Positions 3 through 63,424 of a stretch of 64,000 nt of DNA are shown in pieces. Origin of the DNA: a candidate division Kazan bacterium RIFCSPHIGHO2_01_FULL_44_14 (GTDB lineage: Bacteria; Patescibacteriota; Kazan-3B-28); NCBI GenBank assembly GCA_001771185.1, contig METB01000001.1, positions 439,200-503,199 on the forward strand, written 5' to 3'. The notes beneath the pieces were generated by a model, which saw nothing but the letters and a program-made list of their open reading frames with translations, had not been told where the DNA came from and searched no databases. The position numbers and the translations under genes were made by a program. Each line of letters opens with the position of its first letter. Position 1 is the first letter of the stretch.

Positions 3-1022
3 GTGATTGTAGATAAGGAGGGGGCTAGTTGGACGATACCAAAGCGAGCGTCGATGGTGATTAAACGCGATATCTTGTCGGAGTGGATAGAACACATATT
101 ATCGTTTGCAAAAATTGATGGGTTGAAACCATTAAAGATAGTAGTGGACGCTGGCAATGGGGTGGCGGGACCGATTGTCCGAGAGTTATTTGTACAACTT
201 AACCAAGGGAAAGAGCGAGATACCCGTACCGAGCTTATCGAGGTATATTTCGAGCCAGACGGTAATTTCCCGCATCATTTGCCAAGCCCGATTGAGCCAA
301 AAAATGTGGAGGATTTGTGTAAGAAAGTGGTTGAAGAGAAGGCGGATTTAGGGATGGCGTTTGACGGTGATGCCGACCGACTGTTTTTGGTAGATAACAA
401 TGGGCAATGGGTGAATGGTTCGGAAATGACCGCGTTGGTGATGGATGCGATTTTAACAGAGGATTCAACTCGGACGGTGTTGTATAATGCGATTTGCGGT
501 TGGAATGTTCGAGATGTAATCGAACGACACAGGGCTAAAGCATTGCGTACGCGTGTTGGGCATGGGTTTATCAAAAATGACATGAAAACCTATGGTGCCT
601 TTTTTGCCGGCGAACACTCTGGGCATTATTTCTTTCAAGACAATTACGGTTGTGATTCCGGGTTAATTGCGGCAATGCTGGTTTTGTCATTGATAGCAGA
701 GACGAATCGGTCGCTAATAGAATTATTGGTGCCACATCGGAGATATTTTCAGATTCCAGAGACAAACTTTGAAGTGACCGACATCAAAGTGGCTTTAAAT
801 AAACTAGCAGAAAGATTCCAACATGAAGAACTTGATTGGTTAGATGGATTAACAATTAAAACACTTGAGTGGTGGGCGAATATTCGGCCAAGCCAAACTC
901 AACCGTTGTTGCGGTTGAATGTTGAAGCGACCACTCCAGAAATTCTGGAGCGGGTGACAGCCGAGCTGACTGGATTCATCACAATGGGTCATCCTGAACT
1001 GGTTTCAGGATCTAGATGCTGA
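3..1022 (+). CDS. PGM/PMM-family phosphohexomutase (phosphoglucomutase/phosphomannomutase/phosphoglucosamine-mutase type), C-terminal part; 5' end truncated by the window edge
   Basis: Translation carries the PGM/PMM-family motifs GMAFDGDADR and GEHSGHYFF and a domain IV tail. The last 11 codons (GHPELVSGSRC*) are supplied by a palindromic repeat element at 988-1018. Confidence 0.8.
   Translation: MIVDKEGASWTIPKRASMVIKRDILSEWIEHILSFAKIDGLKPLKIVVDAGNGVAGPIVRELFVQLNQGKERDTRTELIEVYFEPDGNFPHHLPSPIEPKNVEDLCKKVVEEKADLGMAFDGDADRLFLVDNNGQWVNGSEMTALVMDAILTEDSTRTVLYNAICGWNVRDVIERHRAKALRTRVGHGFIKNDMKTYGAFFAGEHSGHYFFQDNYGCDSGLIAAMLVLSLIAETNRSLIELLVPHRRYFQIPETNFEVTDIKVALNKLAERFQHEELDWLDGLTIKTLEWWANIRPSQTQPLLRLNVEATTPEILERVTAELTGFITMGHPELVSGSRC
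988..1018. repeat. Palindromic repeat element, copy A (gtcatcctgaaCTGGTttcaggatctagatg)
   Basis: The 31 nt are identical to copy C at 23919-23949. A longer variant lies at 6924-6966. The core is an inverted repeat, TCCTGAA/TTCAGGA. Confidence 0.8.
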
Positions 1023-1071
1023 AACCCCTTGGTAAAAACTTGGGACATCGTAAATTAAGCATAACATCGGG

Positions 1072-3008: not shown

Positions 3009-4315
3009 TGGTGTGGCTATCGGTATTTTTATTGCCGTGGCAACTAAGGCATACGGTGATGTTTGCGACTATTAATGGCGGATATTTTGAATATGGCTCG
3101 TGGCATATTTATGCGACAGACTTAGTTATAATCGCGCTACTGGTTTGTTGGGTCTTGCGACCAGATAAAAAGTTTTTTGCTGGGCCTAGATGGCTGAGTG
3201 CACCACTTCTAACTTTGTTGGTGTGGATGACACTGTCGGTTAGTTGGGCGGTGGATAAGCCGTTGGCAATGATTACGGCAGGACACTGGTGGTTGGCGTA
3301 TTTGTGGTATTTGTATTTGTTAAATCGGATTCAAGCAATTAGTCAATTAATTCGTCCGCTGATGTGGGGGGTGGGATTACAAGCGCTGTGGGGAGTGGTT
3401 CAATATTTTCTGAACCAGTCGTTGGGGTTTCCCTGGTTGGGCGAATCAATTTTGAACGCTCAAGTGTCTGGCATTCCAGTGGTTATGGCTAATGGGGTGC
3501 GTCAACTGCGAGCCCATGGGATGTTGCCTCACGCTAATATGTTGGGTGGGTTATTAGCGGTGGCAACTCCAGTGTTGATTTATTACTACACCACATTAGA
3601 GCGGTCTAAGTTGAGTCGTCAGTTGGTCCAGATTATCATGCTAGTGGTAGTTGGAGTAGGATTGTCATTCGCTCGTGGAGCATGGTTAGTATTGGGGGTA
3701 GGTTTATTGGTGGTGATTATTTTGGGTTGGTCCGCCAAAAGGGAGGAGCACAATTCGGCGGACAAGCGGTGGAGGAATCGGCGTCAATTTAATATCGCTG
3801 GGGGAGCGTTATTACTTTTTGGTCTGGTTCTTGCTACCCAATATCAATTTGTAATTAATCGGTTTGACTTGTCAGATAGGTTAGAACAGCGCTCGGTTGA
3901 AGAGCGAATTACTGGGGTAACTAATTGGGAAAAGATAGCTGGTCAGTACATGGTTCGAGGGGCGGGGATTGGTGGCTATACGGTGGCTTTGCAAAAACTC
4001 GATAGCACTCAACCGGTCTGGTGGTACCAACCAGTTCATAATGTTTATTTGCTGATGATAGGTGAGTTAGGTGTAGTGGGAGTAGCGATTTGGGCGTGGT
4101 TGATTGCAGTTCTGGTTTGGGTGCAGGTGAAGTGGTTGCGTTTTAAAGAGAATTGGTTGCTGGTTCTGCCGATTGACGCTTGGTTGGCTCTGGGGTTGGT
4201 AGATCATTGGCTGGTATCGCTCCAGCAAGGTAGATTACTTCTGTTTCTGGCTCTGGTATTGATTATTTTAGTGGATAGAGTATCTTTGATTAAGCCAGAA
4301 AGTAAACTATACTAA
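3009..4315 (+). CDS. O-antigen ligase (Wzy_C)-like polytopic membrane protein
   Basis: Multiple hydrophobic helices and a large periplasmic loop with R/H-rich motifs typical of WaaL/O-antigen polymerase-like proteins. The ATG at 3009 is preferred over the overlapping upstream start at 2915. Confidence 0.55.
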
Positions 4316-4963: not shown

Positions 4964-5038
4964 GGGCCGTTAGCGAAGTGGTAACGCGCCTCCCTGGCAG
5001 GGAGGAGATCACCGGTTCGAATCCGGTACGGTCCACCA
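4964..5038 (+). tRNA. tRNA-Ala (anticodon GGC)
   Basis: Cloverleaf: acceptor GGGCCGT/ACGGTCC with the G3:U70 alanine identity pair, anticodon loop CTGGCAG, T-loop GGTTCGAATCC, CCA encoded. Confidence 0.85.
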
Positions 5039-5048
5039 AAACCAAAAT

Positions 5049-5080
5049 TGCCCCAGCGGGGCGATTTTTGTTTTTATGGG
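5049..5080 (+). terminator. Rho-independent terminator after tRNA-Ala
   Basis: Hairpin gccccagcggggc followed by gatttttgttttt. Confidence 0.6.
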
Positions 5081-5170
5081 ATTGGCGGATGAGAATCGGA
5101 GGTTCGCTCGCGATGCTGCTTATATAAATTTGTTGTCTTCCTTGTTGCAGCGAGCGCAGGGCCCCTGTAG

Positions 5171-5202
5171 CCAACAGGGAAATCATCCGGTACGGTCCAC
5201 CA
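5171..5202 (+). repeat. Duplicated tRNA-Ala 3'-end fragment (att-like), copy 2
   Basis: ccaacagggaaATCATCCGGTACGGTCCACCA repeats the 3' 18 nt of tRNA-Ala (5021-5038). It is a near-identical direct repeat of 5625-5659. Confidence 0.75.
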
Positions 5203-5359
5203 CGAACTATTCGCTTCGCTCAAGTTCATGGCGCAGCCACGAACGAAAATAGTATAAGGCGAATAGTGAGTGCCGTGTACCGGAAGCGCCAGCTGACTGG
5301 TACGGGGCGGTGTTCTGTACTCGAGTGTAGCGAGTAGTACGGGACTATATAATACAAAT

Positions 5360-5623
5360 ATGTATTATGTTTACGTACTTCGTAGCCAAATAGACGGTAA
5401 GTTGTATGTTGGTTTTACCGAGGATCTCAAGAAACGACTAATAGCCCATAATTCTGGTAAGAATCTATCAACTCAAACTCGTAAACCATTAGACCTTATA
5501 TTTTACGAAGCTTTTATAAACAAGTTCGATGCCTTGCGTCGTGAGCGATATTTTAAAACCACAAAGGAAAAAGTTACTTTGGTTCAGATGTTGAGAGAGT
5601 ATAGTGGGGTGTCTAGGGCCTAG
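5360..5623 (+). CDS. Small GIY-YIG nuclease-domain protein
   Basis: YVYVLRSQIDGKLYVGFTEDLKKRLIAHNSG is a canonical GIY-YIG N-terminal motif. 87 aa, free-standing. Confidence 0.8.
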   Translation: MYYVYVLRSQIDGKLYVGFTEDLKKRLIAHNSGKNLSTQTRKPLDLIFYEAFINKFDALRRERYFKTTKEKVTLVQMLREYSGVSRA

Positions 5624-5624
5624 A

Positions 5625-5659
5625 CCAGCAGGGAAATCATCCGGTACGGTTTACCATAT
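5625..5659 (+). repeat. Duplicated tRNA-Ala 3'-end fragment (att-like), copy 3, slightly degenerate (ggtTTacca)
   Basis: ccagcagggaaatcatccggtacggt matches 5171-5196 at 25 of 26 positions. Confidence 0.75.
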
Positions 5660-5746
5660 AGAAAGTCGCTCCAAGAGCGAAGTTTAGCTTGACATAGGAA
5701 ACTACTAATAGTAGGATGCAACCATCTTGTACCTAGGAGGTTTGTA

Positions 5747-6208: not shown

Positions 6209-8665
6209 ATGAAAGAGGAGCACTTTAATCACCAGACCATCGAGGCCAAGTGGCAAAAATATTGGAGCAAAGAAAAACTGTTTACGGCCAAAACCGGCGA
6301 TAAACAGTCGAAGGTCTATGTTTTAGATATGTTTGCTTATCCTTCGGGTGATGGGTTGCATGTCGGACATCCCAAGGGGTATATCGCTACGGATATTTTT
6401 GCGCGCTATTATCGAATGCGGGGGATGAATGTACTTCGACCAATTGGCTGGGATGCCTTTGGTCTGCCGGCCGAGAACTATGCGATTAAAGTGGGCAAAC
6501 CGCCAGCCGAGACGACCGAGGTTAATATCAAACGGTTTACCAAGCAACTAAAGTCGCTTGGGTTCGTGTATGACTGGGAGCGAGAGATCAACACCTCCAA
6601 GCCGGACTATTATAAATGGACCCAGTGGCTGTTTAAGATTTTATACGACAACGGTTATGCCTATCAAAAGGAGGCCCATGCCAACTGGTGTCCTAGTGAT
6701 CAGACGGTACTTGCGAATGAGCAGGTGGTAAATGGCTGTTGTGAGCGATGTGGGACGCAAGTTGAGCAGAAACAATTGAAGCAGTGGTTTTTTAAAATTA
6801 CCGAGTTTGCCGAGGAACTATTGGCGGGTCTGAATAAAGTTGACTGGCCGGAATCGACCAAAGTCGGACAGCGGAATTGGATTGGACGCTCTGAAGGAGC
6901 TTCGTTAAAATTCCAAGTTGTCCGTCATCCTGAATTTATTTCAGGATCTAAAGTTGAGATGCTGAATCAAGTTCAGCATGACGAGCTAAACATCGAAGTG
7001 TTTACCACGCGGGCGGATACTATTTTTGGGGCGACTTATTTGGTATTGGCACCGGAACATCCAATAATTAAAAATGAAAAATTAAAAATTAAAAATTTGG
7101 AGGAAGTTATCCAATACATAGAAACAACTAAGAAAAAAAGTGAGCTTGAAAGACAAATCCAGAAAGAGAAAACAGGTGTTCAGTTGGAAGGAGTAATGGC
7201 AATCAACCCAGCGACTGGACAAGAGATTCCGATTTGGATTGCAGATTATGTGTTGATGAATTATGGGACGGGAGCAATTATGGCGGTGCCGGCGCATGAC
7301 GAGCGGGATTTTGAATTTGCGAAGAAATTTAATTTGCCAATTATTAGAGTAATCGAAGGGGGAGAATTACCTTTTGTTGGCCAAGGCCAGTTAGTAAATT
7401 CAGGAATTTTCAGCGGTAAGAACTCTTTGGCATTAATGGCGGATATGGCCGAGAAATTTGGCGGGAAATTAAAAGTACAGTACAAATTACATGACTGGCT
7501 GATTTCTCGTCAGCGGTATTGGGGAGCACCAATACCAGTGGTTTATAAACCACTGGAAATATCAAATTCCAAATCTCAAATACCAAATGGAGAAGAGGGG
7601 TGGAAAGTGGTATCGGTGGACGAGAAGGATTTGCCGGTGATGCTGCCAACGGATGTAGATTTTAAACCAACAGGTGAATCGCCTCTTGCTAATTCAAAAA
7701 CTTTCCAGACGGGAGTAGAAAAAAAATACGGCAGAGGGGCATATCGAGAACTGGACACGATGGACACCTTTGTGTGTTCGTCATGGTATTTTTTGCGCTA
7801 TTGCGATTCTAACAACGACAAAGAATTCGTTAGTGGGAAAGCGCTGAAATATTGGATGCCAGTGGATTTGTATATTGGTGGAGCAGAACATACTAACGGG
7901 CATTTGTTGTATGCTAGATTTATCACCAAGGTTTTGTATAAACTAGGATATTTGGACTTTGACGAACCATTTTTGAAGTTGCGCCACCAAGGATTAATCT
8001 TGGCACCGGATGGTGAGAAGATGAGTAAGAGCAGAGGCAATGTGATAAATCCAGATAATTTAATTGCCAGATACGGCGCCGACACTTTGAGAATGTACGA
8101 AATGTTTATGGGTCCGTTTGATCAGACGGTGGCCTGGGATACTAATGGTGTGACGGGGGTCCGCAAATTTTTAGAGCGAGCATACAAGCTAGTAAAAGAC
8201 CGTAAAGATGAACTGGCAGTAGATGATGTGTCAATCAACCGATTGGTCAAAAAAGTGACCGAGGATATTGCCGAGATGAAATTTAATACGGTAGTGAGTA
8301 GTATGATGGAATTTATTAACGATATGAGCCGAGTGCCAGATGGCGGATGGGCTGAATCATTTGTACAAGTACTAGCTCCGTTTGCACCGCACTTAGCCGA
8401 AGAAATGTGGCAGAATATTTTAGGATATAAAACTAGCGTGTTTGAGTCGGCCTGGCCAACTTTTGACAAAAATAAAATTGCTCACAGTACGGTCGTAATC
8501 GCAGTTCAAGAAAATGGCAAACTGCGAGGGACGGTTAATCTTCCGGCGGGGGCATCAAAAGAAGATGTGTTGTTGGCAGTCAATCAAGACGAGCGATTGG
8601 CCAAGATCGCCAAATCGGCCAAGCGCGAAATATTTGTGCCGGATAAAATTATTAATTTTATTTGA
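6209..8665 (+). CDS. leuS: Leucyl-tRNA synthetase
   Basis: HVGH (HIGH-class) and KMSKS motifs, CP1 editing-domain sequence, 818 aa. It contains an in-frame copy of the palindromic repeat at 6924-6966. Confidence 0.95.
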   Translation: MKEEHFNHQTIEAKWQKYWSKEKLFTAKTGDKQSKVYVLDMFAYPSGDGLHVGHPKGYIATDIFARYYRMRGMNVLRPIGWDAFGLPAENYAIKVGKPPAETTEVNIKRFTKQLKSLGFVYDWEREINTSKPDYYKWTQWLFKILYDNGYAYQKEAHANWCPSDQTVLANEQVVNGCCERCGTQVEQKQLKQWFFKITEFAEELLAGLNKVDWPESTKVGQRNWIGRSEGASLKFQVVRHPEFISGSKVEMLNQVQHDELNIEVFTTRADTIFGATYLVLAPEHPIIKNEKLKIKNLEEVIQYIETTKKKSELERQIQKEKTGVQLEGVMAINPATGQEIPIWIADYVLMNYGTGAIMAVPAHDERDFEFAKKFNLPIIRVIEGGELPFVGQGQLVNSGIFSGKNSLALMADMAEKFGGKLKVQYKLHDWLISRQRYWGAPIPVVYKPLEISNSKSQIPNGEEGWKVVSVDEKDLPVMLPTDVDFKPTGESPLANSKTFQTGVEKKYGRGAYRELDTMDTFVCSSWYFLRYCDSNNDKEFVSGKALKYWMPVDLYIGGAEHTNGHLLYARFITKVLYKLGYLDFDEPFLKLRHQGLILAPDGEKMSKSRGNVINPDNLIARYGADTLRMYEMFMGPFDQTVAWDTNGVTGVRKFLERAYKLVKDRKDELAVDDVSINRLVKKVTEDIAEMKFNTVVSSMMEFINDMSRVPDGGWAESFVQVLAPFAPHLAEEMWQNILGYKTSVFESAWPTFDKNKIAHSTVVIAVQENGKLRGTVNLPAGASKEDVLLAVNQDERLAKIAKSAKREIFVPDKIINFI
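6924..6966. repeat. Palindromic repeat element, copy B, inserted in frame inside leuS
   Basis: gtcatcctgaaTTTATttcaggatcta[aagttgag]atgctgaa encodes RHPEFISGSKVEMLN in LeuS. The same element encodes HPELVSGSRC at the end of ORF 3-1022. Confidence 0.75.
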
Positions 8666-12882: not shown

Positions 12883-14856
12883 TTGTTGTTCAGGCAGTGG
12901 TTGGTCGCAGGTCTTGCGACTGGAGTTTTGGCGACTGCCACTTGGGCGGTCGTGGGGTCAGACAGTATCTGGCAAAACAATGTAGTTGATAAAGGGAAAG
13001 TGGCGAAAGCCAACGGTGAGTTAACCGCCTGGGACAAAGTACCACTCGGCAACCGACATCCATGGATTCTAGTTCATGGGTTACATCAGGATAATGCAAC
13101 CGTTGATGGGATGTCGCCAAATAACGCTAGGCGATTATTTCAGTTGCCGATGACTAATTTTCAGGCGATTTACCGAGACGATTTCAATCTAGAGTTGTTG
13201 GCGGATGTGAAACCATTTCTGTTTACTTACAATTCCGAACGAGACGACAACGAGATTGCCAAAGATCTAAACGCATTAATTGAAAGCAACCCAGAATTGA
13301 CTGGAGCCAAAGTCAAGTTGGTATTTCTGGTCCACAGTAAGGGCGGATGTATTACTGACAACTATGTAGTGAATTTCGGAAATCGGAAATTCTTGCGTGG
13401 GGTAACGTTAGGTTCTCCGCTGGTTGGGACAGTTGCTGCTTCGCGTGATGAAATGGGTAAAGCGTCAAAGAAACTTTATCCACTCCTAGGGAAGAAATTG
13501 ATGACAGTAATTGAGAAGGGAATTAATTTTGACTCTCTCGGGGTGCAGTGGTTGAGATGGCGTAATGATGGACTAATGCGATTGCATCAAGTTAGACCGC
13601 TAGACAACCGATGGTATCTGTATGCCGGAGAAATTAAGCCGGTATCAAACAATTTCATTGCTCGTAATATTCAATTGGCTTTACTGGCCGACTCGGTATT
13701 CATTGGTAAATTAGGAAACGAGGGGGATTTCTATTTACCGTTGTGTGCCGGGTTGATTAAGCAGGCGGGTGGAGGAAAAAGCGATGGGTTGGTTCCGATT
13801 GATTCAGCTCATGCGGTTGGTTTTACCCAAGGGGCAAAATTACGGCTAGAAAATGATTGTGACCACTACGAAATTTTGCAAGGTCGGCAAGGTGATTTGG
13901 CGTTGCATCGCCAGATTCTGTACGACCTACTAACTTTTGTTCCGGGGGAAAAAGACGATTTTAATTTGGACATGTGGTTGCCAGAAGTCCCTTCGATTGA
14001 TTTGCCGAAACTATCACAGAGCAATCTAAATGAAGCGAGAGTGGTTTGGATAGATAGTCGGGGTCAATTGCAAGTAGCAGATAAGAGCGGTACTAATATC
14101 AAAGAGTTGTCTCTGCCCGGTCGATTTAATTGGCCGAGTTGGGATGGGTCTGACATTGTGGTGGCGCGGACACAAAATGGTGCTAGCGATATCGTGCGGG
14201 TTAAATCAGACGGTAAAATGGTCAAATTGACCACCGATGGGACTAGTACTCTGCCGTCAGTAATGAATGGCCAATTAGTATGTGTCAGTGATGACCAACT
14301 TATTTTACGAGATGCTAGTGGGGCTTCCGCAGTTATCTTGGGAGATAAACTTGATTTGGTTGGTCCGCCAGTAATTTTTGCCGACAAAATTTATTTTGCG
14401 CACAAGAAGTCGACAAAAACTGACTTATATTGGATCAGCATTAACCAACGCGGTGCTAAGTTGTCTGATGCCAAGCAAGTCATGGCAGATATTGTTCGCC
14501 CAATTAGAGTCGGCGACTTCTTACTAGGTGTCAGCCAGAGCGGAGAGGTCAAAGCGGTCTTGGGTGGTTGGCTGGGGTTTACCGAAATTAGTTTGCCGTC
14601 TTCAATCAAAGCCAGTCGGAAGTTCATTCCAACCCAGACGGAAGTAGATATCGATGATATAACTGGCGAATTGTATGTGGTAGCGGATGGCCGAGTTCGG
14701 TATCTCGATTACCAAGTGCTGGCGACCTACGCGCCAGATTGGGCTAAGGAGTTGACGGTGGCTACTCTGGAGAAAAGAACGGCCACTTTAGTGGTTCCAT
14801 CTTTGGACGAGTTGGCCCCACCCCTTGGAGAGGGGTCACAAATCGATGTTAAGTGA
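12883..14856 (+). CDS. Secreted protein with an N-terminal alpha/beta-hydrolase (lipase-like, VHSKGG) domain and a beta-rich C-terminal domain
   Basis: TTG start with an AGGGAGGTG RBS, a signal-peptide-like N-terminus, and a PGAP1/lipase-class serine motif. Confidence 0.5.
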   Translation: MLFRQWLVAGLATGVLATATWAVVGSDSIWQNNVVDKGKVAKANGELTAWDKVPLGNRHPWILVHGLHQDNATVDGMSPNNARRLFQLPMTNFQAIYRDDFNLELLADVKPFLFTYNSERDDNEIAKDLNALIESNPELTGAKVKLVFLVHSKGGCITDNYVVNFGNRKFLRGVTLGSPLVGTVAASRDEMGKASKKLYPLLGKKLMTVIEKGINFDSLGVQWLRWRNDGLMRLHQVRPLDNRWYLYAGEIKPVSNNFIARNIQLALLADSVFIGKLGNEGDFYLPLCAGLIKQAGGGKSDGLVPIDSAHAVGFTQGAKLRLENDCDHYEILQGRQGDLALHRQILYDLLTFVPGEKDDFNLDMWLPEVPSIDLPKLSQSNLNEARVVWIDSRGQLQVADKSGTNIKELSLPGRFNWPSWDGSDIVVARTQNGASDIVRVKSDGKMVKLTTDGTSTLPSVMNGQLVCVSDDQLILRDASGASAVILGDKLDLVGPPVIFADKIYFAHKKSTKTDLYWISINQRGAKLSDAKQVMADIVRPIRVGDFLLGVSQSGEVKAVLGGWLGFTEISLPSSIKASRKFIPTQTEVDIDDITGELYVVADGRVRYLDYQVLATYAPDWAKELTVATLEKRTATLVVPSLDELAPPLGEGSQIDVK

Positions 14857-23859: not shown

Positions 23860-24020
23860 AAGCAAAACTGTCTTACTGCTCTCGCCAAACTCTCCCTCCC
23901 CAGTTGTGTCTTCTTCTCGTCATCCTGAACTGGTTTCAGGATCTAGATGAGTAAAATAAATTTAGCATGACAGAACTGGGGAGGGATCAAACAGTTGGCT
24001 TCGCAATGGCAGTTTTGCTG
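23860..24020. repeat. Composite palindromic element (MITE-like): outer inverted arms around palindromic repeat copy C (23919-23949)
   Basis: The left arm (gcaaaactg...ctccctccccagtt) is partly complementary to the right arm (aactggggagggat...cagttttgc). Confidence 0.55.
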
Positions 24021-33507: not shown

Positions 33508-34069
33508 ACGTTAAAAGACGTCTTTGGTATACTCAATCGTGTTATGCCAGAGAAGAGAACATATGCCGATCGTGCCGAGTACATTAAACGAGCAGTGACG
33601 AAGCGCAGAAAAAAGCTGAAGACAATGCTGGTTGAGTATAAGGGCGGTCAATGTGCAATTTGTGGCTATAATCGGAGTCCAGATGTTTTGGAATTTCATC
33701 ATATTGATGAGTCCAAAAAAGAGTTTGGTCTATCGATTCGCGGACTAACTCGCTCATGGGAGAGGATGCGGGTAGAAGCCGATAAGTGCATTTTGTTATG
33801 CGCAAATTGTCATAGAGAAGTACATGCAGGTGTAGTGCAGCTTCCCCAAGTAATTGGGGATGAAAAATGAGGTGAATTGCGAGAAACCTAAGTTTATAGG
33901 CATAGTGGATATGGTAATTCGCAGCCAAGTTCCGGTTTGCCGGGAAAGGTTCAGAGACTATCCTTTATGGAGTAGTTCTACTAAATAGCAGAACGAAGCG
34001 CCTCACACCCCACTCTGAGAAGAAGGGTGATGATATAGTCCATGCCATAGCGAAAGCTGGGAGTACATG
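33508..34069 (+). ncRNA. Group I intron within tRNA-Asn, carrying an HNH endonuclease ORF
   Basis: Its position is inside the anticodon loop. The conserved P3/P7-like sequence elements cluster after the ORF. The exact splice sites are approximate. Confidence 0.55.
33544..33870 (+). CDS. HNH homing endonuclease (intron-encoded)
   Basis: CAICGY...EFHHID...CANCHREVH form the HNH/zinc-binding motif. 108 aa. Confidence 0.8.
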   Translation: MPEKRTYADRAEYIKRAVTKRRKKLKTMLVEYKGGQCAICGYNRSPDVLEFHHIDESKKEFGLSIRGLTRSWERMRVEADKCILLCANCHREVHAGVVQLPQVIGDEK

Positions 34070-35568
34070 TAATCGATTGGTCGTGGGTTCGAATCCCACC
34101 CCCGGAGCCAGTTTGAACAAGTAGATGCTTCAACCAGTAGGTTGAACGGAGAACGAAGCTCGTAGAGCAGGTTTTTCCCGTTTAACTTGCAGTTCTGAAG
34201 TAGGAAGCTCAATAGTTGCCGTTTTTCAGGGACTTCCGAACTTTTGAAGATGTCCATAGCTCTGGAAGCCAGGTTGAATACCATATTGGCGGTCAGGTAA
34301 AACTCTTCATCGGCTTGGCTGTGCGAGTTCATTTCAGCTATCAGCTCTGCCTGTCTACCCTTCCACTCTTTCAGCTTTTTGTCATACATATCCTGCGTAA
34401 TACTACGGTCGAGTTTGTCCTCGTACATTCTGGCTATACGATCTTCCAGCCGATCGTAGTCGGCTCGTAGGGCTGTCATACTCTCTTTGTGAAAATGGGA
34501 CTCATTTTGACCAGTTGTCTTGAGGTCTTGGGTAAGCCTGTCTATGGCTTCCTGGGGCATTTGAACGGCTTTCAGAGCCTTATAGACGGGCTTGAGTAGT
34601 TCTTCCTCTGGTACCCAAATCCTCTTACATAAGCCCTTGAAATTGGTACAGCTGTAGTAGATGTATTTGCCTTTCGATATTTCTGGGGTAATTAGGCAAC
34701 CGCATTTTTCGCACCTAATAAGACCTCGAAAAATATAGGGCTTGGCTCCAGCCTTAAAGGGCTTTTTATGGTAATTATCCATAATTGTCTGGCACTTGCT
34801 GAACAGCCATTCTGGAACGAGTGGCTCATACTTATGGCGATATTCTTTGCCATTGACGACCATTACGCCAGAGTAGAATGGGTTTCTTAAGTTCTTGTGA
34901 ATGAGGCTGGTTGTTAGCTTTTTGCCAGTTCTGGTAATAAATCCAGCCCTATCCAGCTCTTGCTTAATAGTTTTAACGGAGTGCTGACCTGTCCCATAAA
35001 GTTCGAACATCTTAGCAATCAAATGGGCTCGGTCTGGGTCGGGGACTATAGTTTTTTTGCCGTCTGGTAAGTCGTGGTTAATGTAGCCGACTGGAGCCAT
35101 CCCAGGGAACTCGCCATTCAGCAGTTTTTGAGAGATGCTTCTTTTAACATTGTCGCTGAGCTGTAATACATAGCTTCTGGCAAACATTACGCCCATATCC
35201 CAGCGAAGCAGGTCAGAGCTATTGGACTGGTCATTGAGAACGAGGTTTTCTCGGATAAAGTGAATTTCTAACTGTCCATTTTTTCGATACTCATCAAGAA
35301 CAACCGACTCTTTGAAGCTCCTTTGTAGGCGATCAATGGTTTCGACTACTAAAGCAACCTTGTCTTTGGAGCGTTTAATCTCATCAATTACAAGTTCAAA
35401 TTTTGTCCGTTGATCTTTGGTGGATGACTCGTCAAACTGATATTCACTTTTAACTTCCAGCCCTCGATCTTTGCACCACTGTCTTGAACGGGCAAGTTGG
35501 GCGGGGATAGACTGCCCGTCTTGCATTTGTTCTTCGGTCGAAACTCTGGCTAAGATGATGGCTCTCAT
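34003..35568 (-). CDS. Large serine recombinase (integrase); the annotated C-terminal ~36 aa read through the tRNA-Asn 3' exon and may be artefactual
   Basis: N-terminal resolvase domain with catalytic Ser (ILARVSTEEQ), recombinase domain, and a Cys-rich zinc ribbon (CEKCGC...CTNFKGLC). Confidence 0.85.
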   Translation of the reverse strand: MRAIILARVSTEEQMQDGQSIPAQLARSRQWCKDRGLEVKSEYQFDESSTKDQRTKFELVIDEIKRSKDKVALVVETIDRLQRSFKESVVLDEYRKNGQLEIHFIRENLVLNDQSNSSDLLRWDMGVMFARSYVLQLSDNVKRSISQKLLNGEFPGMAPVGYINHDLPDGKKTIVPDPDRAHLIAKMFELYGTGQHSVKTIKQELDRAGFITRTGKKLTTSLIHKNLRNPFYSGVMVVNGKEYRHKYEPLVPEWLFSKCQTIMDNYHKKPFKAGAKPYIFRGLIRCEKCGCLITPEISKGKYIYYSCTNFKGLCKRIWVPEEELLKPVYKALKAVQMPQEAIDRLTQDLKTTGQNESHFHKESMTALRADYDRLEDRIARMYEDKLDRSITQDMYDKKLKEWKGRQAELIAEMNSHSQADEEFYLTANMVFNLASRAMDIFKSSEVPEKRQLLSFLLQNCKLNGKNLLYELRSPFNLLVEASTCSNWLRGWDSNPRPIDYMYSQLSLWHGLYHHPSSQSGV

Positions 35569-62509: not shown

Positions 62510-63424
62510 ATGGATCAAAAGCGTAGCCAGAAGCACCATTATTTGCCAGTTAACTATCTTAATGGTTTTACTGACGACCAAGGTCTTTTCTTCGTTTATG
62601 ATAAAAAAGAGGACCAAATTGTTCAGAAGGCGGTCACGCCAAAGTCGGTATTTTTTGAGAACAATCTCAACACCATAGCATTAAAAGATGAGTGTTCAGA
62701 TTTCCTTGAGGGTCTCTATACCCAAACGGAGAATATATTGTGGGCTCCTTTTGAAACTATCAGACGATCCAAGTCTACTGATCAGATCCAACCTCTAGAC
62801 AGAATGCATTTGTACCTTTTTCTTACATTGCTGTACTGGAGGTTGCCCAGCAATTTCAATCAGGTAAAGAGCTTTTCAAGTAAAGCATTTGCCCACAATA
62901 ATGAAATCGATTACTTTCAGCTAAAATCTCGTAATGGGGATGTCTCCAATGAGATGATTGAGCAGATGAGAGGGTCAGAGTCGTTTAATAAATCAGTAAG
63001 ACTGATACTTCCATTTGCTCCATTCCTTAAGAACAAGGAGTGGTTTTTGTCAGTTGTGAAATGGAAGTTCGTCTATATAGAGCCGAATACGACAGCTTTT
63101 ATTACTGGAGATAATCCGATTATTCTCAAGGATGAGAGTGGTGAGGCCGTTGATCCGCTGGGCGAATTTATTTTTCCGATATCTAGTAATATTCTGTTAG
63201 CGAATTGCGACCATGCTATCAAAAAGGAGTTGGATCCAGCATTCGTTCTACAGGCCAACATTGCAATCATGGAAAATGCCAAGCGGTTTGTAATTTGCCG
63301 GAGCAAAGAATTTCTTCAGGGGTTAGTTAAATACTACAAAATATATAGTCAATACGGGAAAACTCCAACGATAGCGCCAGAGGTATTTGCTATGCTTATA
63401 GATACAGAGCTGGAGTATAAATAG
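62510..63424 (+). CDS. DUF4238-like protein (N-terminal HHYLPxxYLxxF motif)
   Basis: QKHHYLPVNYLNGF matches the recalled DUF4238 N-terminal signature. 304 aa, beginning 6 nt after the upstream gene. Confidence 0.45.
   Translation: MDQKRSQKHHYLPVNYLNGFTDDQGLFFVYDKKEDQIVQKAVTPKSVFFENNLNTIALKDECSDFLEGLYTQTENILWAPFETIRRSKSTDQIQPLDRMHLYLFLTLLYWRLPSNFNQVKSFSSKAFAHNNEIDYFQLKSRNGDVSNEMIEQMRGSESFNKSVRLILPFAPFLKNKEWFLSVVKWKFVYIEPNTTAFITGDNPIILKDESGEAVDPLGEFIFPISSNILLANCDHAIKKELDPAFVLQANIAIMENAKRFVICRSKEFLQGLVKYYKIYSQYGKTPTIAPEVFAMLIDTELEYK

Follow-up and report, generated by a model that had tools for sequence, protein, structure and literature searches.

How does a palindromic repeat come to lie, in frame, within an essential gene, and what kind of element is it? 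The question is raised by leuS, the leucyl-tRNA synthetase gene of the candidate division Kazan bacterium RIFCSPHIGHO2_01_FULL_44_14, which lies in a stretch of 64,000 nucleotides (nt) of contig METB01000001.1 (positions 439,200 to 503,199 of the forward strand; the whole of this stretch is hereafter the window). Our analysis reveals that the insert in leuS is a head-to-head dimer of two repetitive extragenic palindrome (REP) units, which fits the CGTC-2 family of the CGTC-tagged REPs. We consider it probable that the insert is a non-autonomous dimer of REPs which an Ssn-type nuclease probably recognises or mobilises, and which has persisted in a permissive beta-hairpin turn of the protein because a single one of its six reading frames is open.

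A palindromic dimer within leuS

The initial annotation of the locus had recognised a palindromic element in frame within leuS, and the sequence, the LeuS open reading frame (ORF) and the comparison with orthologues all bear this out. Its extent needs revision: the element had been placed at 6924-6966, with a 31-nt core and about 15 added residues, but the true insert (6923-6982) is a 60-nt dimer which adds 20 codons, a length that preserves the reading frame. In units it reads CGTCAT-CCTGAA-TTTAT-TTCAGG-ATC, followed by a 9-nt spacer and the inverted GAT-GCTGAA-TCAAG-TTCAGC-ATGACG, and thus follows a general plan of two inverted 25-nt hairpins, GTCAT-CCTGAA-N5-TTCAGG-ATC. Both hairpins are perfect, with 8-bp stems and 5-nt loops (ATCCTGAA-TTTAT-TTCAGGAT at 6927-6947 and ATGCTGAA-TCAAG-TTCAGCAT at 6959-6979), and because the right-hand stem is the variant GCTGAA the dimer is a heterodimer. 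A repeat search delimits two arms of 30 nt each (6923-6952 and 6954-6983) with 80% complementarity, and as single-stranded DNA the element folds at -15.1 kcal/mol, compared with -5.2 +/- 1.9 kcal/mol for shuffled sequences (z = -5.2).

The alignment of LeuS orthologues supports a lineage-specific insertion, as the initial annotation had supposed. In P0002, the nearest orthologue (81% identical), the site has the sequence KFQIPNSKFQIEVF and the element is missing; the P0002 locus (L002) shares the gene order PGM-trpS-...-leuS-dnaE with the window, and no unit was found across the 22-kb syntenic locus (L002/L003). The segment between the motifs NWIGxSxG and xFTTRxDT has a short form of 15 residues in 55 of 120 orthologues and a form of 13 residues in 8 of them, and the window LeuS without its 60 nt corresponds to the 13-residue form. 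A LeuS identical in 817 of 818 positions (99.9%) and with the same insert is annotated as a protein of candidate division Kazan genomes; it is encoded on nine contigs, which come from independent NCBI, JGI and ENA assemblies, so that the insert is not an assembly artefact.

It could be argued that nothing was inserted at all, and that we are dealing with an ancestral, fast-evolving palindromic LeuS loop or with a chimeric assembly. Loop length indeed varies across bacteria (E. coli has eight extra residues), and a similar peptide is present in two distant orthologues. Nevertheless, near-identical units are found at two other loci of the window (with an exact 31-nt match) and at no fewer than 119 loci in unrelated genomes, the carriers are scattered in the LeuS tree, and the empty site in the 81%-identical orthologue and the nine contigs speak the same language. 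We regard this explanation as already refuted.

According to the initial annotation, the same peptide in LeuS of unrelated lineages would make it ancestral. Such peptides do exist: P0015 and P0016 carry VSHPKLGSGSKNKIPKQVRHD and VSHSELDSGSRKKMPKQVRHD, respectively, at the same LeuS site, both encoded by CGTC-2 dimers. Ancestry does not follow, because in a neighbour-joining tree of LeuS each carrier has an insert-free sister, and because the window dimer is identical in 54 of 59 nt to a dimer at a different leuS site (L127) but in only 46-47 of 59 to the same-site dimers. A single ancestral insertion that the window LeuS would share with P0015 and P0016, followed by several precise losses, is not favoured on these same grounds; the sequences rather suggest independent insertion, or homogenisation, of dimers that would have been filtered by a one-frame rule (see below) and by the tolerance of the loop.

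Further copies are present in the window. A search with CATCCTGAA-N5-TTCAGGAT, allowing up to three mismatches, yielded 8 matches against 0.29 expected, a number reached by none of 100 shuffles, and a scanner for GTC followed by an AT-started hairpin of 8-9 bp detected exactly four units in the 64 kb and no others. Copies A and C (Table 1) have the exact 31-mer GTCATCCTGAACTGGTTTCAGGATCTAGATG in common, with the loop CTGGT where the leuS copy has TTTAT. The tag is CGTC in leuS (6923-6926, and 6980-6983 on the minus strand) and in copy C (23918-23921), and GGTC in copy A. The initial annotation had also attributed the last 11 codons and the stop of the PGM/PMM-family gene to the element, and correctly so: copy A codes for the final 11 residues and the TGA stop (1020-1022) of this ORF (3..1022), which ends in ...ITMGHPELVSGSRC, whereas its syntenic orthologue ends in ...ITALDRVSV. 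The 18-nt inverted repeat around copy C is either a host hairpin whose loop took up the copy or a part of a composite palindrome.

Table 1. Repeat units in the window (window coordinates), sequence forms of the family, and GIY-YIG genes with nearby hairpins in other genomes
Feature	Coordinates	Strand	Description
leuS (leucyl-tRNA synthetase, 818 amino acids)	6209..8665	+	Host gene of the insert; ORF; orthologues named leucine--tRNA ligase
Dimer of CGTC-2-type REP units	6923..6982	+	Head-to-head, 60 nt, LeuS codons 239-258, peptide RHPEFISGSKVEMLNQVQHD
Left REP unit	6923..6950	+	CGTC tag 6923-6926; arms 6927-6934 and 6940-6947; loop TTTAT 6935-6939; tail CTA 6948-6950
Spacer	6949..6957	+	TAAAGTTGA, 9 nt, counted from ...GGATC to GATGC...
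Right REP unit, inverted	6958..6983	-	Minus-strand reading CGTCATGCTGAACTTGATTCAGCATC; stem variant GCTGAA
Copy A	987..1025	+	Between convergent genes (PGM on +, trpS on -); unit GTCATCCTGAACTGGTTTCAGGATC (988-1012), TA, truncated inverted partner GATGCTGAAAC
Copy C	23918..23971	+	Intergenic between convergent genes; CGTC-tagged unit 23918-23943, TA, degenerate inverted partner ending GCATGAC
18-nt inverted repeat around copy C	23893..23986	not assigned	TCCCTCCCCAGTTGTGTC paired with GACAGAACTGGGGAGGGA
CGTC-2 hairpin/unit sequence forms			CGTCATCCTGAAnnnnnTTCAGGATC; CGTCATCCTGAA; CGTCATCCTGAACTTGTTTCAGGATC; CGTCATGCTGAA...GCATC
L052 (Lutibacter)			CGTC-2 stem (CTGAA-type); unit 29 nt from GIY-YIG gene
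L103			Variant stem ATCCTGAC, 4-nt loop; units 12 and 13 nt from the GIY-YIG gene ends
L268 (Pontixanthobacter)			CGTC-2 stem, tags outward; CGTCACCCTGAACTTGTTTCAGGGTC 15 nt upstream and GATGCTGAAACAAGTTCAGCATGACG 1 nt downstream of GIY-YIG gene
L270/L271 (Bipolaricaulis)			CGTC-2 stems; arrays on both sides of GIY-YIG gene
L269 (Sulfurimonas)			Variant stem ATCTCCG, 7-nt loop; units ~80 and ~100 nt from GIY-YIG gene

CGTC-tagged repeats and their reading frames

The text of Di Nocera et al. (2013, BMC Genomics 14:522, PMC3733652) describes CGTC REPs as elements with a CGTC or TGTC tag (CCTC being accepted), AT-started stems of 8-9 bp, loops of 4-5 nt and a 3-nt tail with the consensus CCA, which mostly form head-to-head dimers with the tags outside and often lie near the 3' ends of convergent genes. 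Its CGTC-2 family has an 8-bp stem and a 5-nt loop, and heterodimers predominate. The window units, at three loci in 64 kb, agree with this description in tag, stem, loop, dimer arrangement and 3'-end position, and the in-frame copies are a further likeness. In the supplementary table of the same paper an intragenic CGTC-2 peptide of Sulfurovum is given as RHSELVSGS, near-identical to RHPEFISGS and GHPELVSGS in the window; by the criteria of the text and by this peptide, the leuS element fits CGTC-2. The host, a member of the Patescibacteria (candidate division Kazan), lies outside the five phyla named there. Copy A deviates in its GGTC tag, and the tails in the window are CTA and CTC rather than CCA, forms that are also the more frequent ones among the 140 units listed from other genomes (CTC 34, CTA 28, CCA 23).

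The initial annotation likened the insert to the Rickettsia palindromic elements (RPEs), of which RPE-1, 100-150 bp long, is unrelated in sequence. For other RPEs the comparison is apt: they too are palindromic repeats that sit in frame within essential genes, again in a reduced genome, and the classification given in PMC3733652 assigns R. conorii RPE-6 to CGTC-1 (together with Neisseria dRS3) and R. conorii RPE-4 to CGTC-4, i.e. to the superfamily whose features are displayed by the window units. RPE-4 and RPE-6 belong to other families within it, with 9-bp stems or 4-nt loops. The claim that such insertions are rarely reported elsewhere was overstated, given that PMC3733652 records GTAG and CGTC REPs inside genes of many species, tRNA synthetase genes among them, in addition to the RHSELVSGS peptide.

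An exact-pattern scan with one genome per species returned at least 119 loci, and 140 units from other genomes were analysed. The 25-mer is present in more than ten bacterial phyla and in viral contigs; among the matches listed, the hosts comprise Patescibacteria, Bacteroidota, Sphingomonadales, Gammaproteobacteria, Campylobacterota, Spirochaetota (Treponema), Gastranaerophilales, Elusimicrobiota and Rickettsiales. Among the 140 units listed the loop bases are non-random (CTTGT in 58, TTTAT in 25, CTTGA in 21), the palindrome is directly followed by C in 120, and an inverted partner lies 7-90 nt downstream in 63. These three features identify the unit as a 25-mer conserved across phyla, GTCATCCTGAACTTGTTTCAGGATC; from the Candidate Phyla Radiation (CPR) to Bacteroidota, Alphaproteobacteria and Spirochaetota, and also in viral contigs, the hairpin is conserved nearly base for base. 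In Rfam 15 the only matches, whether the threshold was the gathering score or a permissive one, were to generic hairpins (miRNA precursors), with 12-21 bits compared with gathering cut-offs of 50-100, and a literature text search with the DNA and peptide strings retrieved only unrelated primers.

Viral contigs of IMG/VR (L229/L218, L226/L237, L245, L243, L228) carry three to nine CGTC-2 units each, on a single strand; in L229, L226/L237 and L245 many of them stand head-to-tail with other GTCAT-headed hairpins, e.g. GTCATTTCGAnnnnnnnGAGAAATC. The viral loci that were screened yielded no GIY-YIG ORF.

With its length of 60 nt the dimer cannot shift the frame, and five of its six frames contain a stop codon, leaving open just the frame in which leuS reads it; surviving intragenic dimers therefore all code for HPE(L/F)xSGS...QV(Q/R)HD. 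A single unit has three open frames (RHPELVSGS, VILNLFQDL and EILKQVQDD), and the unit peptides within long ORFs of other genomes correspond to exactly these three. In-frame units were found in LigA (Nomurabacteria), GltB (Treponema), a glycosyltransferase and a membrane protein, and a FemAB-like protein carries a complete in-frame dimer (CHPELVSGSSLSSEMPKQVRHDK). This one-frame rule accounts for the recurrence of HPELVSGS...QVQHD, or of VILNLFQD and ILKQVQDD in the case of single units, in unrelated proteins of many phyla, and makes the recurring REP peptide a practical flag for annotators and for those who build protein families.

About 10 of the 140 units are preceded by tandem copies of the flank and the first half-unit (L029, L042, L084, L089, L115, L122, and L269 on the 3' side of GIY-YIG). 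In one example AACCAATCC-GTCATCCTGAAC is repeated ahead of the full hairpin, in frame, as LNNQSVI x2 in a glycosyltransferase. Such copies may stem from slippage at the hairpin, or from cleavage and repair 5' of the tag. In the genome of P0015 the annotated PGM/PMM begins with MYMSLRVKRSNLLCVSPAKLQRRWVIPAEAGIQK... and spans a CGTC-1-type unit, GTCATTCCCGCGGAGGCGGGAATCC (L001, 3110-3280, unit at 3182-3204); this start is probably mis-called, with the true methionine (MHKSIFRAYDIRG) downstream.

Ssn-type nucleases as candidate partners

SsnA, a single-domain GIY-YIG protein of 94 amino acids (aa), binds and cuts the Neisseria NTS (CGTCATTCCCGCGMAVGCGGGAATCYRG, which contains dRS3) only as single-stranded DNA (Chenal et al. 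2025, Nat Commun 16:2388, PMC11893778). According to that paper, binding depends critically on the C that follows the palindrome and cleavage on the three bases before it, the cut falls a few nt upstream, and ssn genes are typically flanked by hairpins. The window units retain the CGTCAT head, the palindrome and the post-palindrome C, i.e. the positions that control cleavage and binding by SsnA, and like NTS/dRS3 they occur in dispersed copies; their stem is AT-richer (CCTGAA vs TCCCGCG) and their loop measures 5 nt. The bracketing of GIY-YIG genes by such hairpins recurs in other phyla: in five of five loci examined, from four phyla, a single-domain GIY-YIG gene of 94-110 aa lies within ~100 nt of CGTC-type hairpins (Table 1), and homologues of these hairpin-flanked genes are 64-67% identical across the four phyla.

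By analogy with Neisseria NTS and SsnA, the units of the CGTC-2 dimer, each built from an unpaired (C/T)GTC tag, an AT-started 8-bp stem, a 5-nt loop and a C-initial tail, are probably single-stranded-DNA recognition hairpins of a 94-aa Ssn-type GIY-YIG nuclease. Because Ssn-like genes elsewhere are bracketed by units with outward tags, the dimer resembles a 'REP-ssn-REP' cassette in miniature and without its gene, to which it would relate as a miniature inverted-repeat transposable element (MITE) or a REPIN, a REP doublet, relates to its parent element. A cognate nuclease may be encoded in this Kazan genome. The element itself would most likely be a non-autonomous repeat that entered LeuS in its CP1 (editing) domain, at the turn of the first beta-hairpin and just 5' of TTRxDT.

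Several observations weigh against this interpretation. The readable part of the Kazan contig, ~73 kb, yielded no Ssn-like gene, and the only GIY-YIG genes in it are UPF0213-like. The published search pattern for Ssn-related motifs (SRM), HGTCWYN(0-2)YYVSBRHN(0-5)WNVSBRGN(0-2)RNCYNB, matches none of the four window units, nor anything else in the window, while the Neisseria NTS used as a control does match; the pattern is tuned to GC-rich stems. The evidence presented for Ssn in the text of PMC11893778 consists of cleavage and an effect on transformation, transposition never being demonstrated there. At four leuS junctions, among them those of the window, L001 and L127, we found neither a target-site duplication nor a common target motif, and the lack of such a duplication also sets the element apart from a classical MITE. 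Moreover, the three carriers, scattered as they are in the LeuS tree, have their dimers at an identical position and with an identical 9-nt spacer. Finally, the part of the LeuS model on which the tolerance of the insert depends is of low confidence (see below).

The geometry invites comparison with REPINs in the strict sense, in which a REP doublet is mobilised by RAYT, an IS200/IS605-like Y1 (HUH) transposase: an inverted REP pair with a short spacer, a long single-stranded-DNA hairpin, many copies, and no coding capacity. As in the REPIN/RAYT systems of Pseudomonas and Enterobacteria, the inverted doublet appears to be the replicating unit, and a single-copy nuclease gene is flanked by REPs. 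We nevertheless consider a RAYT origin very unlikely. The tag is CGTC and not the defining GTAG of REPs served by RAYT, with its PF01797 Y1 domain; REPINs are lineage-specific, which the 25-mer, with its conservation across phyla, is not; Table 1 of PMC3733652 reports no transposase association for CGTC REPs; and the genes found flanked by hairpins are GIY-YIG genes, not Y1 transposases. No neighbour family recurs at the 119 loci listed, where an all-against-all clustering of 1369 ORFs gave only generic families, and a tblastn search with E. coli RayT, a weak test of low sensitivity, found no match in the window or in ~125 loci.

A wider claim, that the 60-nt CGTC-2 dimer serves a pan-bacterial 'REP-ssn-REP' element as its mobile unit, REPIN-like and neutral to the reading frame, we put forward only tentatively, and on present grounds we rather doubt it. 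The failure of the SRM pattern has a bearing of its own: it misses an AT-richer family that flanks Ssn-like genes, so that the known range of Ssn specificity is probably incomplete, which in turn matters for the single-stranded-DNA tools that have been proposed.

The window itself contains a single-domain GIY-YIG gene of 87 aa (5360-5623), which we rejected as the cognate nuclease. Its nearest solved relatives are UPF0213 proteins and it does not possess the C-terminal extension of the hairpin-flanked family; 80 metagenomic homologue loci contained only seven CGTC units in 303 kb, and only one of these seven comes as close as ~100 nt to the gene, an AT-rich hairpin in L137 which is probably a terminator. 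This GIY-YIG gene is located downstream of tRNA-Ala(ggc) (4964-5038), and on either side of it the tRNA 3' end is repeated in direct orientation, as ATCCGGTACGGTCCACCA (5186-5203) and as ATCCGGTACGGTTTACCA (5638-5655). The block of tRNA, GIY-YIG gene and a 104-aa ORF (4964-5660) is absent from the syntenic L002, and in 46 of 60 metagenomic loci with homologues (L128-L187) the GIY-YIG start is preceded, at a distance of 60-350 nt, by the end of a tRNA or tmRNA gene in the same orientation, whose identity varies. The block looks like a mobile cassette tied to tRNA 3' ends.

Elsewhere in the window, a group I intron match (Rfam RF00028, 81 bits) at 33782-34062 on the plus strand has an HNH-like ORF (33544-33870) on one side and on the other a serine-recombinase ORF (34003-35568, minus strand); ARAGORN predicts no tRNA there. 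Another contig, L208, contains the 304-aa DUF4238 protein found in the window at 62510-63424; at 13102-14506 it encodes the components of a diversity-generating retroelement, namely bAvd and a reverse transcriptase.

A permissive turn of LeuS and its meaning

The AlphaFold2 model of the window LeuS has a mean pLDDT of 88.8, which drops to 54-57 for residues 241-260, between the strands 227-239 and 261-266. The insert aligns to the PVEGKE turn of T. thermophilus LeuS, directly before TTRPDT. In LeuS structures this turn belongs to the first beta-hairpin of CP1, the editing domain, while the adjoining motif is the threonine-rich editing motif. The 20 extra residues may thus form a flexible surface excursion that is neutral for the enzyme, a conclusion drawn from this low-confidence region of the model.

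The same turn has received other inserts in other CPR lineages. P0056 carries a pair of CGTC-1-like and CGTC-3-like units (VIPAKAGI...RIKSGMT), further GTCAT-headed hairpins occur in P0045, P0073 and P0093, and 7-nt tandem tracts are found in still others. In about 25 CPR orthologues an alpha/beta-hydrolase domain of ~190 aa is inserted at the turn of the REP dimer. Altogether at least four hairpin families occupy this turn in different lineages, the three that were analysed as DNA being of CGTC type. At the DNA level the families begin 3, 6 or 10 nt past a conserved Phe codon, and these differing offsets indicate separate events in one permissive turn rather than one site-specific event. The leuS gene of L127 holds two dimers, the second one at another loop (CHPEFISGSKEQMLKQVQHD); both, as well as the dimer of L001, have a spacer of the same length as that in the window.

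In P0093 the REP dimer adjoins the ~190-aa hydrolase domain, and P0103 resembles a deletion remnant of this domain. Tandem tracts of 7-9 nt are present in several LeuS loops: CAAATTC x4 in L002 (10706-10732; IPNSKFQ), four GAAATCCG-like repeats in L001 (11360-11410; QIRNPKPEIRN), and a tract in the window at 7550-7600 (SNSKSQIPN). The L002 tract was considered as an excision scar and rejected, since similar tracts are found at other loops and apparently constitute an independent class of insert.

It is conceivable that the insert is a selected module: the hairpins could act in leuS RNA or DNA (as a stabiliser of the mRNA, a target of RNase, a site of pausing or attenuation, or a gyrase or recombination site), or the peptide could modulate the editing domain. 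The insert is fixed in nine of nine contigs of the species, it adjoins the TTRxDT editing motif, and similar dimers occupy the same turn in two other lineages. In L127 pairing is maintained by a paired change from T-A to C-G relative to the window, and copies A and C lie where convergent genes end, a position from which REPs are supposed to act on transcripts. Yet no insert is present in the closest orthologue or in 55 of 120 orthologues, and the modelled insert is a low-confidence coil. In other CPR lineages the turn has accepted unrelated REP families, tandem repeats of 7 nt and the hydrolase domain, as would be expected of a permissive dump site, and since the GCCGAA stem variant is common elsewhere in the family, the 'compensatory' change need not have originated at this site. 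Selection for a function at this site is therefore, in our judgement, quite improbable, and we retain the interpretation of a non-autonomous dimer tolerated by the turn.

The in-frame spread of palindromic repeats is a phenomenon already described and not a new kind of system. Our results extend the known class of CGTC REPs and Ssn-related hairpins to the CPR, apparently as the first description there, no report from the CPR having been found in the searchable literature. The points that are new are modest ones, namely the rule of a single open frame in the 60-nt dimer, and the Ssn-like genes flanked by hairpins that the SRM pattern misses. Should the pan-bacterial reading be true, the conservation of both the hairpin and the putative nuclease (64-67%) would imply ongoing horizontal spread, or a class of Ssn specificity that escapes the SRM pattern. 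CPR genomes are gene-dense and have little intergenic DNA, so that in this case the dimers would repeatedly colonise the same few permissive loops of essential proteins, and could be a source of loop expansion and perhaps of the gain and loss of domains.

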